Shown one piece after another: positions 1,602 through 55,804 of a DNA stretch of 64,000 nt. Each line of letters begins with the position of its first letter. Position 1 is the first letter of the stretch. Source of the DNA: Escherichia phage vB_EcoM-UFV09; sequence record MZ291552.2; one strand, 5' to 3'. The position numbers and the translations under genes are program-made. The notes under the pieces are model-generated. The model searched no databases, was not told the DNA's origin, and saw only the letters and a list, made by a program, of their open reading frames with translations.

Positions 1602-3226
<1,625 letters not shown>

Positions 3227-5393: not shown

Positions 5394-6959
5394 ATGACTA
5401 TCAAAACTAAAGCTGAACTTTTGAACAAATGGAAGCCATTACTGGAAGGTGAAGGTTTACCGGAAATTGCTAATAGCAAACAAGCGATTATCGCTAAAAT
5501 CTTTGAAAACCAGGAAAAAGATTTCCAGACAGCTCCGGAATATAAAGACGAAAAAATTGCTCAGGCATTCGGTTCTTTCTTAACAGAAGCTGAAATCGGT
5601 GGTGACCACGGTTACAATGCTACCAACATCGCTGCAGGTCAGACTTCTGGCGCAGTAACCCAGATTGGCCCGGCTGTTATGGGTATGGTACGTCGTGCTA
5701 TTCCTAACCTGATTGCTTTCGATATTTGTGGTGTTCAGCCAATGAACAGCCCGACTGGTCAGGTATTCGCACTGCGCGCAGTATATGGTAAAGATCCAAT
5801 CGCTTCCGGCGCTAAAGAAGCATTCCACCCAATGTATGGTCCAGATGCAATGTTCTCTGGTCAGGGTGCTGCTAAGAAATTCGCTGCTTTGAAAGCAAGT
5901 GATACTCTTGAAGTTGGAACTATTTACACCCACTTCTTCCAGGACACTGGTACAGTATATCTGCAAGCTACAGAAGCTAAACAAATTGATTCAGGCGCAT
6001 CTGACGCAGCTAAATTAGATGCTGAAATTAAGAAACAAATGGAAGCAGGTGTACTGGTAGAAATCGCTGAAGGTATGGCTACTTCTATCGCTGAACTTCA
6101 GGAAGGTTTTAACGGTTCTACCGATAACCCATGGAATGAAATGGGCTTCCGTATCGATAAGCAAGTTATCGAAGCTAAATCTCGTCAGCTGAAAGCTGCT
6201 TACTCTATTGAATTAGCACAAGACCTCCGCGCTGTTCACGGTATGGATGCTGATGCTGAACTGTCTGGTATTCTGGCTACAGAAATTATGCTGGAAATCA
6301 ACCGTGAAGTTGTTGATTGGATTAACTACTCCGCTCAGGTTGGTAAATCTGGTATGACCCTGACTCCGGGTTCTAAAGCTGGTGTATTCGACTTCCAGGA
6401 CCCAATCGATATTCGTGGTGCTCGCTGGGCGGGTGAATCCTTTAAAGCTCTGTTGTTCCAGATTGACAAAGAAGCAGTTGAAATTGCTCGTCAGACCGGT
6501 CGTGGTGAAGGTAACTTCATTATTGCTTCCCGTAACGTAGTTAACGTTCTGGCTTCAGTTGATACCGGCATTTCTTATGCTGCACAGGGTCTGGCTACCG
6601 GCTTTAACACTGATACTACCAAGTCAGTATTTGCTGGTGTTCTGGGTGGTAAATACCGTGTATATATCGACCAGTATGCTAAACAGGATTATTTCACTGT
6701 AGGTTATAAAGGTCCGAACGAAATGGATGCTGGTATTTACTACGCTCCATATGTAGCTCTGACTCCACTGCGTGGTTCTGATCCGAAGAACTTCCAACCG
6801 GTAATGGGGTTCAAAACTCGTTACGGTATCGGTATCAACCCATTTGCAGAATCCGCTGCTCAGGCTCCGGCTTCTCGCATTCAGAGTGGTATGCCTTCTA
6901 TCCTGAACAGCCTTGGTAAGAACGCTTACTTCCGCCGTGTATATGTTAAAGGTATCTAA
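5394..6959 (+). CDS. 23: Major capsid protein
   Basis: 521 aa; N-terminus MTIKTKAELLNKWKPLLEGEG recognised as T4 gp23; strong codon bias typical of a highly expressed gene. Confidence 0.95.
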   Translation: MTIKTKAELLNKWKPLLEGEGLPEIANSKQAIIAKIFENQEKDFQTAPEYKDEKIAQAFGSFLTEAEIGGDHGYNATNIAAGQTSGAVTQIGPAVMGMVRRAIPNLIAFDICGVQPMNSPTGQVFALRAVYGKDPIASGAKEAFHPMYGPDAMFSGQGAAKKFAALKASDTLEVGTIYTHFFQDTGTVYLQATEAKQIDSGASDAAKLDAEIKKQMEAGVLVEIAEGMATSIAELQEGFNGSTDNPWNEMGFRIDKQVIEAKSRQLKAAYSIELAQDLRAVHGMDADAELSGILATEIMLEINREVVDWINYSAQVGKSGMTLTPGSKAGVFDFQDPIDIRGARWAGESFKALLFQIDKEAVEIARQTGRGEGNFIIASRNVVNVLASVDTGISYAAQGLATGFNTDTTKSVFAGVLGGKYRVYIDQYAKQDYFTVGYKGPNEMDAGIYYAPYVALTPLRGSDPKNFQPVMGFKTRYGIGINPFAESAAQAPASRIQSGMPSILNSLGKNAYFRRVYVKGI

Positions 6960-9939: not shown

Positions 9940-11358
9940 TTATGGATAGGTATAGATGATACCAGTTTCTAAAGCTGTTTTGTGAATGATGTATCCATTA
10001 CGCGATTCTTGGACATCAACTTCTGGATAGTCTTTCATCATCTTCTGAAGCGTATAACGATGCAAGTAGTACTTACTATCTGGGTCGTCAGTTTTCCAAT
10101 CTTTACCTTCTTCAGTCATTTTTTGGATTTCATCCATAACCCACCAACCGCACCAGATATAAGCTGAAGTACGGTGCGGAAGAGGATGAACATAAGGCAA
10201 TTCACCTTCTGGTTCTGGAGCAACTTTATCAGTCACTTGAACTTGACCTGTTGTTTTAACTGTTTTGCTATCATAATCAGTTGCTGTAACGACAGCAGTA
10301 ACTTCAATAGTTTGACTTCCAACAGATGAGGTATCGACAGTATATACGTTAGTTGACCCTTCTACAGGAGAAGAATCTTTCTTCCACGAGTAAGTAATTT
10401 GTGCTTCTTCTGGAGCATCCGTAACATTAGCAGTAAATGTAGCCGAAGCATCTTGCTGAACGTTAATAGAAGGAGGAGTCAATGTAACCTGTGGATTCAT
10501 TGTCTTCTTATTAACTGTCAATGATACTTCATTAGAAGTAACTTCCTTTTCATTGTAATTTTCTGCTGTTACTTGGGCTACGCATTTAATTCTTTTTACT
10601 CCACTTGTAGTTGGAGTATAGCTAAATGTAGAGTTAGTTTCTCCACCAACTTGTGAATCATCTACATACCATTTATATGTAGCAGACGCTCCATCAGGTT
10701 GAGAAGCTAAGGCAGCAGTAAATTGAACTGGGGTTCCAATTACTCCAGCTGAAGGACTAGCAGGAGTTACTGCCAATGTAGTTGTCTGTGTCTTTTTATT
10801 AACAGTCAGTGATACTTCATTCGAAGTAACGGTTTTTTCATCATAATTTGTCGCGGTTACTTGAGCTACACACTTGATTTTTTTAACTCCGCTTGCGGCA
10901 GGAGTGTAATTGAATGTAGCAGAAGTCGCTTCGTCTACAGGAGAACTGTCAACGTACCATTGATACGTAGCAGATGCACCTGATGGCTGCGAAGCTAAAG
11001 CAGCGGTAAATTTAACAGCTGTTCCAATTACTCCTGCTGGAGGACTATTGGGAGTTACGGCTAAGGTAGTCGTCTGAGTTTTGTTTTTGACTGTGATAGT
11101 TGTAGTAGCTTCTGCTGTTTCAGCTTCAGATTCTGGAACTGTATTTGTTGCAACAACTTTAATAGTCTTTTAACCAGCAGGACCTTTTAATACATAATCA
11201 AAAGTTGCTTCAGACCCATCTTGTGGAGCATTATCTACACTCCAAGCATAAGTAATAGTTCCACCTCCAGTTTCACCACTGGGTGCAGCAGTAAACTGCT
11301 TGGTTTCATCAATAACTCCTGACGGTGCTTTAGGAGTTATATCAACTGTAAAAGCCAT
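9940..11358 (-). pseudogene. hoc: Highly immunogenic outer capsid protein Hoc, interrupted by one in-frame TAA (plus 11170-11172); about 472 codons if read through
   Basis: N-terminal piece MAFTVDITPKAPSGVIDETKQF...LKGPAG then TAA; the same frame continues KTIKVVATN... with no further stop to 9940 (hand translation); Ig-like repeats and C-terminal capsid-binding region recognised. Confidence 0.8.
10500..11080 (-). repeat. Tandem duplicated Ig-like domain coding units inside hoc (two units of about 290 bp)
   Basis: The two DNA units align with frequent substitutions; encoded peptides LAVTPNSPPAGVIGTAVKFTAALASQPSGASATYQWYVD and LAVTPASPSAGVIGTPVQFTAALASQPDGASATYKWYVD. Confidence 0.7.
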
Positions 11359-11367
11359 AAGTTATCC

Positions 11368-12048
11368 TTATTTTAATGTTACGAAAGAAGAATTGCGTGT
11401 TTCACGAATTAAAACTGATCCGTCGCGATTAATGTAATAAATTAAGCTAAACAAAGTTTGGTGTGCTGACGCGTGTTCAAAACTAGTTGGATGAGATTTC
11501 CAATCAGGAGTTTCAGCGATCCATTGATAAATCCACCAAGGAACCGTACAGAATCCTGGATTTTTCCCCAATAATTGAAGATTCGGGCTAAAGTTTTCCG
11601 GAAGAGTAAATACAGACGGCTTTTCAGATTCAATAATCTCAGCTACAGCTTGTTCAAACTTTTCTTCAACAAAAGGAGTGTCTTCAATCAAAACATCAGT
11701 ATTTTCAGGAATTTTATCCGTTTCTACAACTTCAATTTTAATATCAGATTTAACTGGAGAATCAATCAGAAGCGCTGCTTCTGGATTAACTTCTTCATCG
11801 TCATATTTTAATCCCTCTGCAGCATCAGCAGCATCAATTAAGTCTTTAATAGATAACCCATCAGTCTCTGGCATAGGTTCACTAGCGAGCTTCTGGAGGG
11901 CTTCTTCAATATCAACAACGATATTATCAAAAGATTTATTCTTTTTGACCTTTATACCAAACTGTTCAGCATATTCAGCTAATTTAGCTTTAGCTTCTTT
12001 ATTATCATCAAGAGCCTTCAGCTCTGCAATATAATCTTTATCTATCAT
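11368..12048 (-). CDS. inh: Inhibitor of prohead protease
   Basis: 226 aa, same as T4 Inh; adjacent to hoc. Confidence 0.7.
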   Translation of the reverse strand: MIDKDYIAELKALDDNKEAKAKLAEYAEQFGIKVKKNKSFDNIVVDIEEALQKLASEPMPETDGLSIKDLIDAADAAEGLKYDDEEVNPEAALLIDSPVKSDIKIEVVETDKIPENTDVLIEDTPFVEEKFEQAVAEIIESEKPSVFTLPENFSPNLQLLGKNPGFCTVPWWIYQWIAETPDWKSHPTSFEHASAHQTLFSLIYYINRDGSVLIRETRNSSFVTLK

Positions 12049-50711: not shown

Positions 50712-53700
50712 ATGGCCGAGATTAAAAGAAAGTTCAGAGCAGAAGACGGTCTGGACGCAGGTGGTGATAAAATAATCAACGTAGCTTTAGCTGATCGTAC
50801 CGTAGGAACTGACGGTGTTAACGTTGATTACTTAATTCAAGAAAACACAGTTCAACAATATGATCCAACTCGTGGATATTTAAAAGATTTTGTAATCATT
50901 TATGATAACCGCTTTTGGGCTGCTATAAATGATATTCCAAAACCAGCAGGAGCTTTTAATAGCGTACGATGGAGAGCGTTACGTACTGATGCAAACTGGA
51001 CAACTGTTTCGTCAGGACCTTATCAATTAAAATCAGGCGAATCGATTTCAGTTAACACTGCAGCGGGTAATGACATTACATTTACTTTGCCATCTTCTCC
51101 AATTGATGGTGATACTATCGTTCTCCAAGATATTGGAGGAAAACCTGGAGTTAACCAGGTTTTAATTACAGCTCCGGTACAAAGCATTGTAAACTTTAGA
51201 GGTCAACAAGTACGCTCAGTACTAATGACTCATCCAAAATCACAGATAGTTTTAATTTTTAGTAATCGTCTGTGGCAAATGTATGTTGCTGATTATAGCA
51301 GAGAAGCGGCAGTTGTAACGCCAGCGAGTCTTTATCAAGCGCAATCAAACGATTTTATCGTGCGTAGATTTACTTCTGCTTCAGCAATTAATATTAAACT
51401 TCCTAGATTTGCTAATCATGGGGATATTATTAATTTTGTTGATTTAGATAAATTAAATCCGTTATATCATACTATCGTTACTACATACGATGAAACGACT
51501 TCAGTACAAGAAGTTGGAACTCATTCCATTGAAGGCCGTACATCTATTGATGGTTTCTTAATGTTTGATGATAATGAGAAATTGTGGAGATTATTTGACG
51601 GTGATAGTAAAGCGCGTTTACGCATTATAACAACTAATTCAAACATTCGTCCAAATGAAGAAGTCATGGTATTTGGCGCGAATAATGGAACAACTCAAAC
51701 GATTGAACTTCAGCTTCCAACTGATATTTCTATCGGTGATACTGTTAAGATTTCCATGAATTACATGAGAAAAGGACAAACAGTTAAAATCAAAGCTGCC
51801 GGTGAAGATAAAATTGCTTCTTCAGTTCAATTGTTGCAATTTCCAAAACGTTCAGAATACCCACCTGAAACTAAATGGGTGACTGTTCAAGAATTAGTTT
51901 TTAACGGCGAAACTAATTATGTTCCAGTTTTACAGCTTGCTTATATCGAAGATTCCGATGGAAAATATTGGGTTGTACAGCAAAACGTTCCAACAGTTGA
52001 AAGAGTAGACTCTTTAAATAATTCTACTAGAGCAAGATTAGGTGTAATTGCATTAGCTACACAGGCTCAAGCTAATGCAGATTTAGAAAATTCTCCACAA
52101 AAAGAATTGGCAATTACTCCAGAAACGTTAGCTAATCGTACTGCTACAGAAACTCGTAGAGGTATTGCAAGAATAGCAACAACTGCGCAAGTAAACCAGG
52201 ATACCACATTCTCTTTTGCAGATGACCTTATCATCACTCCTAAAAAGTTGAATGAAAGAACTGCTACAGAAACTCGCAGAGGTGTCGCAGAAATTGCTAC
52301 GCAGCAGGAAACTAATACAGGTACTGATGATACTACAATCATTACTCCTAAAAAGCTTCAAGCTCGCCAAGGTTCTGAATCATTATCTGGTATTGTAACT
52401 TTTGTATCTACTGCAGGAGCTACTCCAGCTTCTAGCCGCGAATTAAATGGTACGAATGTTTATAATAAAAACACTAATAACTTAGTTGTTTCACCTAAAG
52501 CCTTGGATCAGTATAAAGCTACTCCAACACAGCAAGGTGCGGTAATTTTAGCAGTTGAAAGTGAAGTAATTGCTGGACAAAGTCAAGAAGGATGGGCAAA
52601 TGCGGTTGTAACGCCAGAAACGTTACATAAAAAGACATCAACTGATGGAAGAATTGGTTTAATTGAAATTGCTACTCAAAGTGAAGTTAATACAGGAACT
52701 GATTATACTCGTGCAGTCACTCCTAAAACTTTAAATGACCGTAGAGCAACTGAAAGTTTAAGTGGTATAGCTGAAATTGCTACACAAGTTGAATTCGACG
52801 CAGGCGTCGACGATACTCGTATCTCTACACCATTAAAAATTAAAACTAGATTTAATAGTACTGATCGTACTTCAATTGCTACACAAGTTGAATTCGACGC
52901 AGGCGTCGACGATACTCGTATCTCTACACCATTAAAAATTAAAACTAGATTTAATAGTACTGATCGTACTTCTGTTGTTGCTCTATCTGGATTAGTTGAA
53001 TCAGGAACTCTCTGGGACCATTATACCCTTAATATTCTTGAAGCAAATGAGACACAACGTGGTACACTTCGTGTGGCTACACAAGTTGAAGCTGCTGCCG
53101 GAAAATTAGATAATGTTTTAATAACTCCTAAAAAGCTTTTAGGTACTAAATCTACCGAATCGCAAGAAGGTGTTATTAAAGTTGCAACTCAGTCTGAAAC
53201 TGTGGCTGGAACGTCAGTAAACACTGCTGTATCTCCAAAAAATTTAAAATGGATTGTACAGAGTGAACCTACCTGGGCAGCTACTACTGCGATAAGAGGT
53301 TTTGTTAAAACTTCATCTGGTTCAATTACATTTGTCGGTAATGATACAGTCGGTTCTACCCAAGATTTAGAACTGTATGAGAAAAATAGCTATGCAGTAT
53401 CACCATATGAATTAAACCGTGTATTAGCAAATTATTTGCCATTAAAAGCAAAAGCTGCAGATAGTAATTTATTGGATGGTCTAGATTCATCTCAGTTCAT
53501 TCGTAGGGACATTGCGCAGACGGTTAATGGTTCACTAACCTTAACCCAACAAACGAATCTGAGTGCCCCTCTTGTATCATCTAGTACTGCTACGTTTGGT
53601 GGATCAGTTTCAGCAAATAGTACATTAACTATTTCTAATACTGGAACAGCAACTCGATTGATTTTTGAGAAAGGACCTCAAACTGGAACAAACCCAGCCC

Positions 53701-54680
53701 AAACGATGACTGTTAGAGTGTGGGGAAATCAATTTAGTGGGGAATTAGATACAACACGTTCTACCGTATTTGAAGTTAGTGATGAAACATCTAGTCATTT
53801 TTATTCTCAGCGCAATAAAGCCGGAAATATAACATTTAATATCAACGGTACAGTAACACCGATAAATGTTAATGCTTCAGGAACATTGAATGCAAATGGC
53901 GTAGCAACATTTGGTAATTCAGTCACTGCAACTGGTGAAATTATTTCTCGAAGCGCAAATGCTTTCCGTGCTATTAACGGAAATTATGGTTTCATTGTTC
54001 GCAATGATGGATCAGTAACGAATTTTATGCTTACTGCATCGGGTGATCAGACTGGTGGATTTAACGGATTACGTCCTTTGGCTATTAATAATGCATCTGG
54101 TCAAGTAACGATTGGTGAAAGCTTAATCATCGCCAAAGGTGCTACTATAAATTCTGGTGGTTTAACTGTTAATTCGAGAATTCGTTCTCAAGGTACTAAA
54201 ACTTCTGATTTATATACCCGTGCGCCAACATCTGATACTGTAGGATTCTGGTCAATTGATATTAATGATTCAGCTACTTATAACCAGTTCCCCGGTTATT
54301 TTAAAATGGTTGAAAAAACTAATGAAGTGACTGGACTTCCGTACTTAGAACGTGGCGAAGAAGTTAAATCTCCTGGTACACTGACACAGTTTGGTAACAC
54401 ACTTGATTCGCTTTACCAAGATTGGATTACTTATCCAACGACACCAGAAGCGCGTACCACTCGTTGGACCCGCACATGGCAGAAAACCAAAAATTCTTGG
54501 TCAAGTTTTGTTCAGGTATTTGATGGAGGTAACCCTCCTCAACCGTCTGATATCGGTGCTTTACCATCTGATAATGCTACAATGGGGAATCTTACTATTC
54601 GTGATTTCTTACGAATTGGTAATGTTCGCATTATTCCTGACCCAGTGAATAAAACTGTTAAATTTGAATGGGTTGAATAA
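50712..54680 (+). CDS. 34: Long tail fibre proximal subunit
   Basis: 1322 aa (T4 gp34 1289 aa); characteristic repeated ITPK/ATE-RRG-A-IAT motifs; starts the tail fibre operon. Confidence 0.9.
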   Translation: MAEIKRKFRAEDGLDAGGDKIINVALADRTVGTDGVNVDYLIQENTVQQYDPTRGYLKDFVIIYDNRFWAAINDIPKPAGAFNSVRWRALRTDANWTTVSSGPYQLKSGESISVNTAAGNDITFTLPSSPIDGDTIVLQDIGGKPGVNQVLITAPVQSIVNFRGQQVRSVLMTHPKSQIVLIFSNRLWQMYVADYSREAAVVTPASLYQAQSNDFIVRRFTSASAINIKLPRFANHGDIINFVDLDKLNPLYHTIVTTYDETTSVQEVGTHSIEGRTSIDGFLMFDDNEKLWRLFDGDSKARLRIITTNSNIRPNEEVMVFGANNGTTQTIELQLPTDISIGDTVKISMNYMRKGQTVKIKAAGEDKIASSVQLLQFPKRSEYPPETKWVTVQELVFNGETNYVPVLQLAYIEDSDGKYWVVQQNVPTVERVDSLNNSTRARLGVIALATQAQANADLENSPQKELAITPETLANRTATETRRGIARIATTAQVNQDTTFSFADDLIITPKKLNERTATETRRGVAEIATQQETNTGTDDTTIITPKKLQARQGSESLSGIVTFVSTAGATPASSRELNGTNVYNKNTNNLVVSPKALDQYKATPTQQGAVILAVESEVIAGQSQEGWANAVVTPETLHKKTSTDGRIGLIEIATQSEVNTGTDYTRAVTPKTLNDRRATESLSGIAEIATQVEFDAGVDDTRISTPLKIKTRFNSTDRTSIATQVEFDAGVDDTRISTPLKIKTRFNSTDRTSVVALSGLVESGTLWDHYTLNILEANETQRGTLRVATQVEAAAGKLDNVLITPKKLLGTKSTESQEGVIKVATQSETVAGTSVNTAVSPKNLKWIVQSEPTWAATTAIRGFVKTSSGSITFVGNDTVGSTQDLELYEKNSYAVSPYELNRVLANYLPLKAKAADSNLLDGLDSSQFIRRDIAQTVNGSLTLTQQTNLSAPLVSSSTATFGGSVSANSTLTISNTGTATRLIFEKGPQTGTNPAQTMTVRVWGNQFSGELDTTRSTVFEVSDETSSHFYSQRNKAGNITFNINGTVTPINVNASGTLNANGVATFGNSVTATGEIISRSANAFRAINGNYGFIVRNDGSVTNFMLTASGDQTGGFNGLRPLAINNASGQVTIGESLIIAKGATINSGGLTVNSRIRSQGTKTSDLYTRAPTSDTVGFWSIDINDSATYNQFPGYFKMVEKTNEVTGLPYLERGEEVKSPGTLTQFGNTLDSLYQDWITYPTTPEARTTRWTRTWQKTKNSWSSFVQVFDGGNPPQPSDIGALPSDNATMGNLTIRDFLRIGNVRIIPDPVNKTVKFEWVE
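52775..52972 (+). repeat. Perfect 99-bp in-frame tandem duplication inside gene 34 (33 aa duplicated)
   Basis: Two identical 99-nt units; encoded IATQVEFDAGVDDTRISTPLKIKTRFNSTDRTS appears twice in succession. Confidence 0.85.
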
Positions 54681-54688
54681 GAGGTATT

Positions 54689-55804
54689 ATGGAAAAATTT
54701 ATGGCAGAGTTTGGACAAGGATATGTCCAAACGCCATTTTTATCGGAAAGCAATTCAGTAAGATATAAAATAAGCATAGCGGGTTCTTGCCCGCTTTCTA
54801 CAGCAGGATCATACGTTAAATTTCAGGATAATCCTGTAGGAAGTCAAACATTTAGTGCAGGTCTTCATTTAAGAGTTTTTGACCCTTCCACGGGAGCATT
54901 GGTTGATAGTAAGTCATATGTTTTTTCTACTTCAAATGATACAACATCTGCTGCTTTTGTTAGTTTCATGAATTCTTTTTCAAGCAATAGACTTGTTGCC
55001 ATATTAACTAGCGGAAAGGTTAATTTTCCTCCTGAAGTAGTATCTTGGTTAAGAACGGCAGGAACATCTGCTTTTCCATCTGATTCTTTATTGTCAAGAT
55101 TTGATGTATCATATGCTGCCTTTTACACTTCTTCTAAAAGAGCTATCGCACTAGAGCATGTTAAACTGAGTAACAGAAAAAGCACAGATGACTATCAAAC
55201 TATATTAGATGTAGTATTTGACAGTTTAGAAGATGTTGGAGCGACAGGATTTCCTAAAAGAACATATGAAAGCGTTGAGCAATTTATGTCAGCTGTTGGT
55301 GGAACTAATAACGAAATTGCACGTCTACCTACAGCATCTGCAATAAGTAAACTTTCTGACTATAATTTAATTCCTGGAGATGTTCTTTATCTTAAAGCAC
55401 AACTATATGCTGATGCTGATTTACTTGCTCTTGGAACTACAAATATATCTATCCGTTTTTATAATGCGTCGAATGGATATATTTCCTCGACACAAGCTGA
55501 GTTTACCGGACAAGCTGGGTCTTGGGAATTAAAGGAAGATTATGTAGTTGTTCCTGAAAATGCAGTTGGATTTACGATATATGCACAGAGAACTGCTCAA
55601 GCGGGACAAGGCGGTATGCGAAATTTAAGCTTTTCTGAAGTATCAAGAAACGGCGGTATTTCAAAACCTGCTGAATTTGGCGTCAATGGTATTCGTGTTA
55701 ATTATATCTGTGAATCTGCTTCACCTCCGGATATAATGGTACTTCCTACGCAAGCATCGTCTAAAACTGGTAAAGTGTTTGGACAGGAATTTAGAGAAGT
55801 TTAA
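54689..55804 (+). CDS. 35: Long tail fibre hinge connector
   Basis: 371 aa (T4 gp35 372 aa); synteny. Confidence 0.85.
   Translation: MEKFMAEFGQGYVQTPFLSESNSVRYKISIAGSCPLSTAGSYVKFQDNPVGSQTFSAGLHLRVFDPSTGALVDSKSYVFSTSNDTTSAAFVSFMNSFSSNRLVAILTSGKVNFPPEVVSWLRTAGTSAFPSDSLLSRFDVSYAAFYTSSKRAIALEHVKLSNRKSTDDYQTILDVVFDSLEDVGATGFPKRTYESVEQFMSAVGGTNNEIARLPTASAISKLSDYNLIPGDVLYLKAQLYADADLLALGTTNISIRFYNASNGYISSTQAEFTGQAGSWELKEDYVVVPENAVGFTIYAQRTAQAGQGGMRNLSFSEVSRNGGISKPAEFGVNGIRVNYICESASPPDIMVLPTQASSKTGKVFGQEFREV

Follow-up and report, generated by a model that had tools for sequence, protein, structure and literature searches.

The long tail fibre gene 34 of Escherichia phage vB_EcoM-UFV09 (MZ291552.2) contains, as deposited, a segment of 99 bp that is present twice in immediate succession and without a single difference, which raises the question of whether this phage possesses a lengthened fibre or whether the repeat arose when the genome was assembled. 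The first-pass annotation had described the repeat as a perfect in-frame duplication that encodes the same 33 residues twice, and had taken the zero divergence between the copies to mean either a very recent event or an artefact. In the following, coordinates refer to the window, i.e., the whole stretch of 64,000 nucleotides that was analyzed, unless another record is named. The features of the locus are:

50712..54680, + strand: deposited ORF of gene 34, encoding the proximal subunit of the long tail fibre (UXR08759.1); 1322 aa, including 33 aa that are almost certainly spurious
52775..52873, + strand: copy 1 of the 99-bp unit (Tandem Repeats Finder, extension test)
52874..52972, + strand: copy 2 of the 99-bp unit, redundant; its deletion gives back the sibling sequence
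52859..52888, + strand: novel junction, GATCGTACTTC followed directly by AATTGCTACAC (as a 30-mer, ACTGATCGTACTTCAATTGCTACACAAGTT), found in the UFV09 record alone

The structure of the repeat is unambiguous: Tandem Repeats Finder places a single array at 52775..52972, with a period of 99, 2.0 copies, 100% matches and 0 indels, and base-by-base extension confines the repeat to exactly 198 bases, with no further match beyond either edge. The copies are identical, abut directly, and encode IATQVEFDAGVDDTRISTPLKIKTRFNSTDRTS at aa 689-721 and again at aa 722-754, so that the initial description of the duplication is borne out by repeat detection, extension and translation alike. An exact repeat of 99 bases is far beyond what could be expected by chance, and no other perfect tandem duplication with a period of 15-300 is present in the 64-kb window. 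The genuine copy can be either copy 1 or copy 2, which are equally assignable; when 52874..52972 is taken out, the region of 6,902 bp surrounding gene 34 aligns without a single mismatch to UFV05, a near-identical phage. A real, very recent duplication in the UFV09 stock, brought about by slippage or illegitimate recombination and adding 33 residues to the shaft of the proximal half-fibre, would agree with the intact ORF and the in-frame position of the copies, and a fresh duplication would indeed show zero divergence. However, since 99 = 3 x 33, any duplication of 99 bp is automatically in frame, and the in-frame state of the copies is not a sign of selection.

As a separate observation, the window contains a hoc-like head decoration gene (9940..11358, - strand, 472 codons), whose reading frame is broken at codon 63 by one in-frame TAA, between ...KGPAG and KTIKV...; this may be a true nonsense mutation, the gene being non-essential, or an error common to the records. 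The tandem array at 10501..11076, which has a period of 288 bp (96 aa) and 76% matches, represents two repeated domains of this gene that lie side by side, and the sequence of the gene is the same in UFV10 and UFV11.

The identity of the affected gene is well supported. The 1322-aa protein scores above the curated Pfam cut-offs for Gp34_trimer (PF21446; E = 7.8e-32) and Gp34_2nd (PF21560; E = 1.7e-37), i.e., both the C-terminal trimerisation domain and the second C-terminal domain of gp34 are present. The gene is flanked by rnh upstream, on the opposite strand, and by genes 35 and 36 downstream (window ORFs; annotation of Aplg8 and UFV05), and the homologous region in relatives is annotated as gp34 or long tail fibre proximal subunit. 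Together, domains and gene order uphold the assignment to gene 34 that had been made earlier. By exact sequence match, the deposited protein is UXR08759.1, “long tail fiber”, of vB_EcoM-UFV09, and it belongs to a protein cluster at 90% identity with 371 members; among those listed, the others have 1289-1290 aa, save one partial entry of 473 aa. The cluster includes the T4 isolate T4_ev151 with 1289 aa, and the excess of 33 aa over T4 that had been noted from 1322 versus 1289 aa is thereby confirmed. T4 gp34 and the UFV09 gene share neighbours and C-terminal Pfam domains and are of equal length once the extra copy is subtracted; the sole difference of the deposited protein from T4 gp34 in this comparison consists of the 33 residues at aa 722-754, which are almost certainly spurious.

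The duplication lies within a series of native repeats in the gp34 shaft, and it is conceivable that such a region changes in length and that a phage might tolerate additional in-frame sequence in a fibre shaft so rich in repeats. The native units start at aa 524, 560, 609, 649, 685, 784, and 820, comprise about 36-49 aa, and follow the pattern G-x-x-x-[IVL]-A-T-x-x-E ... TP..L. The unit at the site of the duplication has 37 aa, namely GIAE plus the 33 aa, and the copy is without these first four residues. The possibility that one native structural repeat was duplicated was therefore rejected: a segment of 33 aa is four residues short of the 37-aa unit and out of register with the series, which also argues against a real event. 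For the same reason, the earlier suggestion that the shaft, if the duplication were real, would be longer by one repeat unit does not stand, as the leading G-I-A-E is missing.

A T4 replication origin, ori(34), sits within gene 34. The annotation of Aplg8 (KT184308.1) places an “ori type 2 repeat” in this gene (2830..2839 of the compared segment L001, corresponding to about 52729..52738 in the window), which is about 40 bp upstream of the segment that is duplicated in UFV09, and further an “insertion site ... similar to attP of HK022” (L001 2591..2601, about 52490..52500 in the window). A connection between the duplication and the replication origin was considered and dropped, as the duplication is judged not to be real.

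The most informative comparison is provided by the sibling phages vB_EcoM-UFV05, UFV06, UFV10, and UFV11, which come from wastewater in Brazil. Window positions 40000-64000 are 100% identical to all four, with a matching span that is exactly 99 bp shorter in the siblings, and gene 34 of UFV10, UFV11, and UFV06 has one copy. Within the 49 kb compared by megablast, UFV10, UFV11, and UFV06 are 100% identical to UFV09, and window positions 1-25000 reach the self-match (maximum) score against UFV10 and UFV11, with zero differences. UFV11 and UFV06 differ from each other by 2 mismatches and no gaps over 46,092 bp when their duplications are collapsed. The records of UFV09, UFV10, and UFV11 have a length of 165,859 bp each, and that of UFV06 has 165,858 bp. 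As the siblings are 99 bp shorter at gene 34 and yet near-equal in total length, each of them must therefore contain about 99 extra bases elsewhere. These bases were found as one perfect tandem duplication of exactly 99 bp per record:

UFV09: window 52775..52972, perfect 99-bp duplication in gene 34 (UXR08759.1)
UFV10 (OP555981.1): record 11793..11991 (segment L007), perfect 99-bp duplication in a ribosyltransferase gene (UYL84162.1; 233 vs 200 aa)
UFV11 (OP555982.1): about 55601..55798 (5702..5899 of segment L008), perfect 99-bp duplication in a gene for a small hypothetical protein (UYL84536.1; 90 vs 57 aa)
UFV06 (OP555980.1): about 83384..83581 (10485..10682 of segment L010), perfect 99-bp duplication in the gene for a gp8-like baseplate wedge protein (UYL84018.1; 367 vs 334 aa)

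Over the roughly 206 kb of these genomes that were examined, these four are the only perfect tandem duplications with a period of 15-300. That each duplication is private to its record was judged by the coordinate offsets in pairwise megablast, by CDS lengths, and by junction searches. The site in UFV10 is single-copy in UFV11 and UFV06 (span of 24,901 vs 25,000), the site in UFV11 is single-copy in UFV06 (CDS of 174 vs 273 nt), and the site in UFV06 is single-copy in UFV11 (CDS of 1005 vs 1104 nt); UFV09 itself is probably single-copy at all three, as its equal total length suggests. The records of UFV10 and UFV06 open with the stop codon of rIIA, and the first base of UFV11 lies 10 bases ahead of it, from which it follows that the sibling records were re-oriented after assembly. 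Co-linearity and equal record length indicate that UFV09 was presumably rotated as well.

Two further observations concern the sibling records as such. UFV05 (OP572230.1, 165,776 bp) has a 99-bp gain nowhere, and relative to UFV10 it differs from its siblings by a net +7 bp within 1-25 kb and +9 bp within 50-96 kb. In UFV10, UFV11, and UFV06, the automatically assigned product names look unreliable, with runs of adjacent genes that are named “thioredoxin”, “molybdenum ABC transporter ...”, “exonuclease”, or “transcriptional regulator”.

The private duplications decide between the two possibilities that had been left side by side on account of the zero divergence: because three near-identical siblings each hold their own 99-bp repeat elsewhere, the duplication in gene 34 is almost certainly an artefact of the individual record and does not belong to the genome of the phage. 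A recent event, the other half of that claim, loses ground further by the distribution of the junction, which was met nowhere else. A query of 1001 bp spanning the repeat has matches in 557 phage records, and all 60 of these that were listed match in two pieces over 901-902 bases, i.e., with one copy. The junction itself gave no match in 50,697 phage records when megablast was run with queries of 100 nt and 40 nt, the latter being centred on the junction such that seeding is possible only where the junction exists. As a positive control, the UFV10 junction was recovered by the same kind of junction megablast, in UFV10 alone. In exact scans, a junction 24-mer does not occur in IMG/VR, in JGI metagenomes, or in 185,579 prokaryote genomes (GTDB, one per species), while the native single-copy boundary 24-mer, which served as a control, is found in 6 IMG/VR contigs; relatives are therefore represented in that collection. 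Neither the 100%-identical siblings nor about 500 Tequatrovirus gene-34 sequences, which are independent sequences of related phages, contain the duplication.

Microhomology at the four junctions amounts to 0, 1, 0 and 0 bases, as chance would have it and unlike what slippage or recombination gives; at gene 34, there is none. Slippage or recombination through local homology was rejected for this site on the same grounds, and nearby TTGCT motifs would predict a duplication of 102 bp, not 99 bp.

T4-like genomes are circularly permuted, and 99 belongs to the standard k values with which de Bruijn assemblers, for instance SPAdes and MEGAHIT, are run. The simplest explanation for the duplication in gene 34, which we consider very probable, is an untrimmed end overlap of k = 99 in a “circular” de Bruijn contig, and hence an artefact of genome finishing. 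From a circularly permuted genome, a de Bruijn-graph assembler would give an apparently circular contig, of which the last k bases equal the first k; here, k would be 99, and the breakpoint of the contig would be arbitrary and vary from run to run. If such a contig were rotated until rIIA came first, as in T4, and its ends fused without trimming of the overlap, one exact 99-bp tandem duplication would be left at the old breakpoint, which in UFV09 would have fallen within gene 34 by chance. What the records contain is in line with this sequence of steps: a fixed length of 99 bp, one duplication per record, sites that differ between records, junctions that are independent of homology, and re-oriented sibling records.

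Comparable cases are documented. A phage contig assembled with SPAdes carried direct terminal repeats of 127 bp, one of which was taken out (PMC9009655), and apparent circularisation and repeats misplaced inside contigs are named among common assembly errors in the Phage Annotation Guide (PMC8785237). The terminal k-mer overlaps of SPAdes resemble the duplication in UFV09 in their exactness, in a length that is fixed by a parameter, in their occurrence once per assembly, and in an arbitrary position that does not depend on the sequence, and in both the 127-bp case and UFV09 the phage genome is circularly permuted. The difference is that the 127-bp overlap was situated at the contig ends, whereas the presumed 99-bp overlap in UFV09 is internal, where it resembles an in-frame gene duplication; 127 is also the more familiar of the two lengths. 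For the UFV phages, no description of the assembly method was found in the papers that were searched, and the UFV09 paper states the sequencing only; the type of assembler and the value of k are those to which the pattern in the records points. The pipeline was not fully uniform, since UFV05 is without a 99-bp gain.

An untrimmed k-mer overlap is not the only technical error that could insert 99 bases. A manual or reference-guided merge of contigs that overlap by 99 bases, or an overlap whose length was set by the reads, would likewise fit the evidence for a per-record artefact, and the laboratory has used SeqMan NGen, an assembler of the overlap type, for another of its phages. We nevertheless hold such an origin to be very improbable: that four separate records agree on 99 bases exactly speaks for a value fixed in the program rather than for ad hoc merges, and the restriction to one site per record is what the closure of a single circular contig would leave.

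A genuine duplication in UFV09 is very improbable as well. Superficially, the gene resembles cases of true fibre-shaft length variation, in that a repeat-like segment has been gained in frame within a shaft of tandem motifs. Such events, however, are inherited, common to relatives, and usually accompanied by some divergence or by homology at the junction, none of which applies to UFV09. Nor do they turn up with one fixed length in different, unrelated genes across sibling genomes, as the duplications in the UFV records do. Moreover, a real event would demand that four near-clonal isolates had, independently of one another, each gained a duplication of exactly 99 bp, and this at unrelated positions that include two structural genes (gene 34 and that of the gp8-like baseplate wedge protein). 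Otherwise, UFV09 shows no difference from UFV10 and UFV11 in the stretches compared, and comparisons there that involve UFV06 yield no more than 2 mismatches and an indel of 1 bp. A duplication that physically exists in the UFV09 stock, with the sibling duplications as an unrelated coincidence or artefact, is just as hard to credit; in that event, the proximal half-fibre of the phage would be both viable and longer by 33 residues, with an extra repeat out of register.

The practical relevance of the duplication lies in the quality of the databases. Four GenBank records, UFV09 and OP555980-OP555982 (UFV06, UFV10, and UFV11), almost certainly contain one spurious 99-bp duplication each, and at least four proteins in nr, UXR08759.1, UYL84018.1, UYL84162.1, and UYL84536.1, are accordingly 33 residues too long. 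Such overlong proteins can mislead comparative or structural studies of fibre length. As a screen, we suggest to look in rotated phage genomes for an exact internal tandem duplication with the length of a common k (55, 77, 99, 127), and to presume that such a duplication is an untrimmed circular overlap unless reads show otherwise. For the phage itself, the duplication in gene 34 has no biological importance: the true gp34 of UFV09 is expected to have 1289 aa, as in T4, and its fibre is built from an ordinary T4-type gp34.
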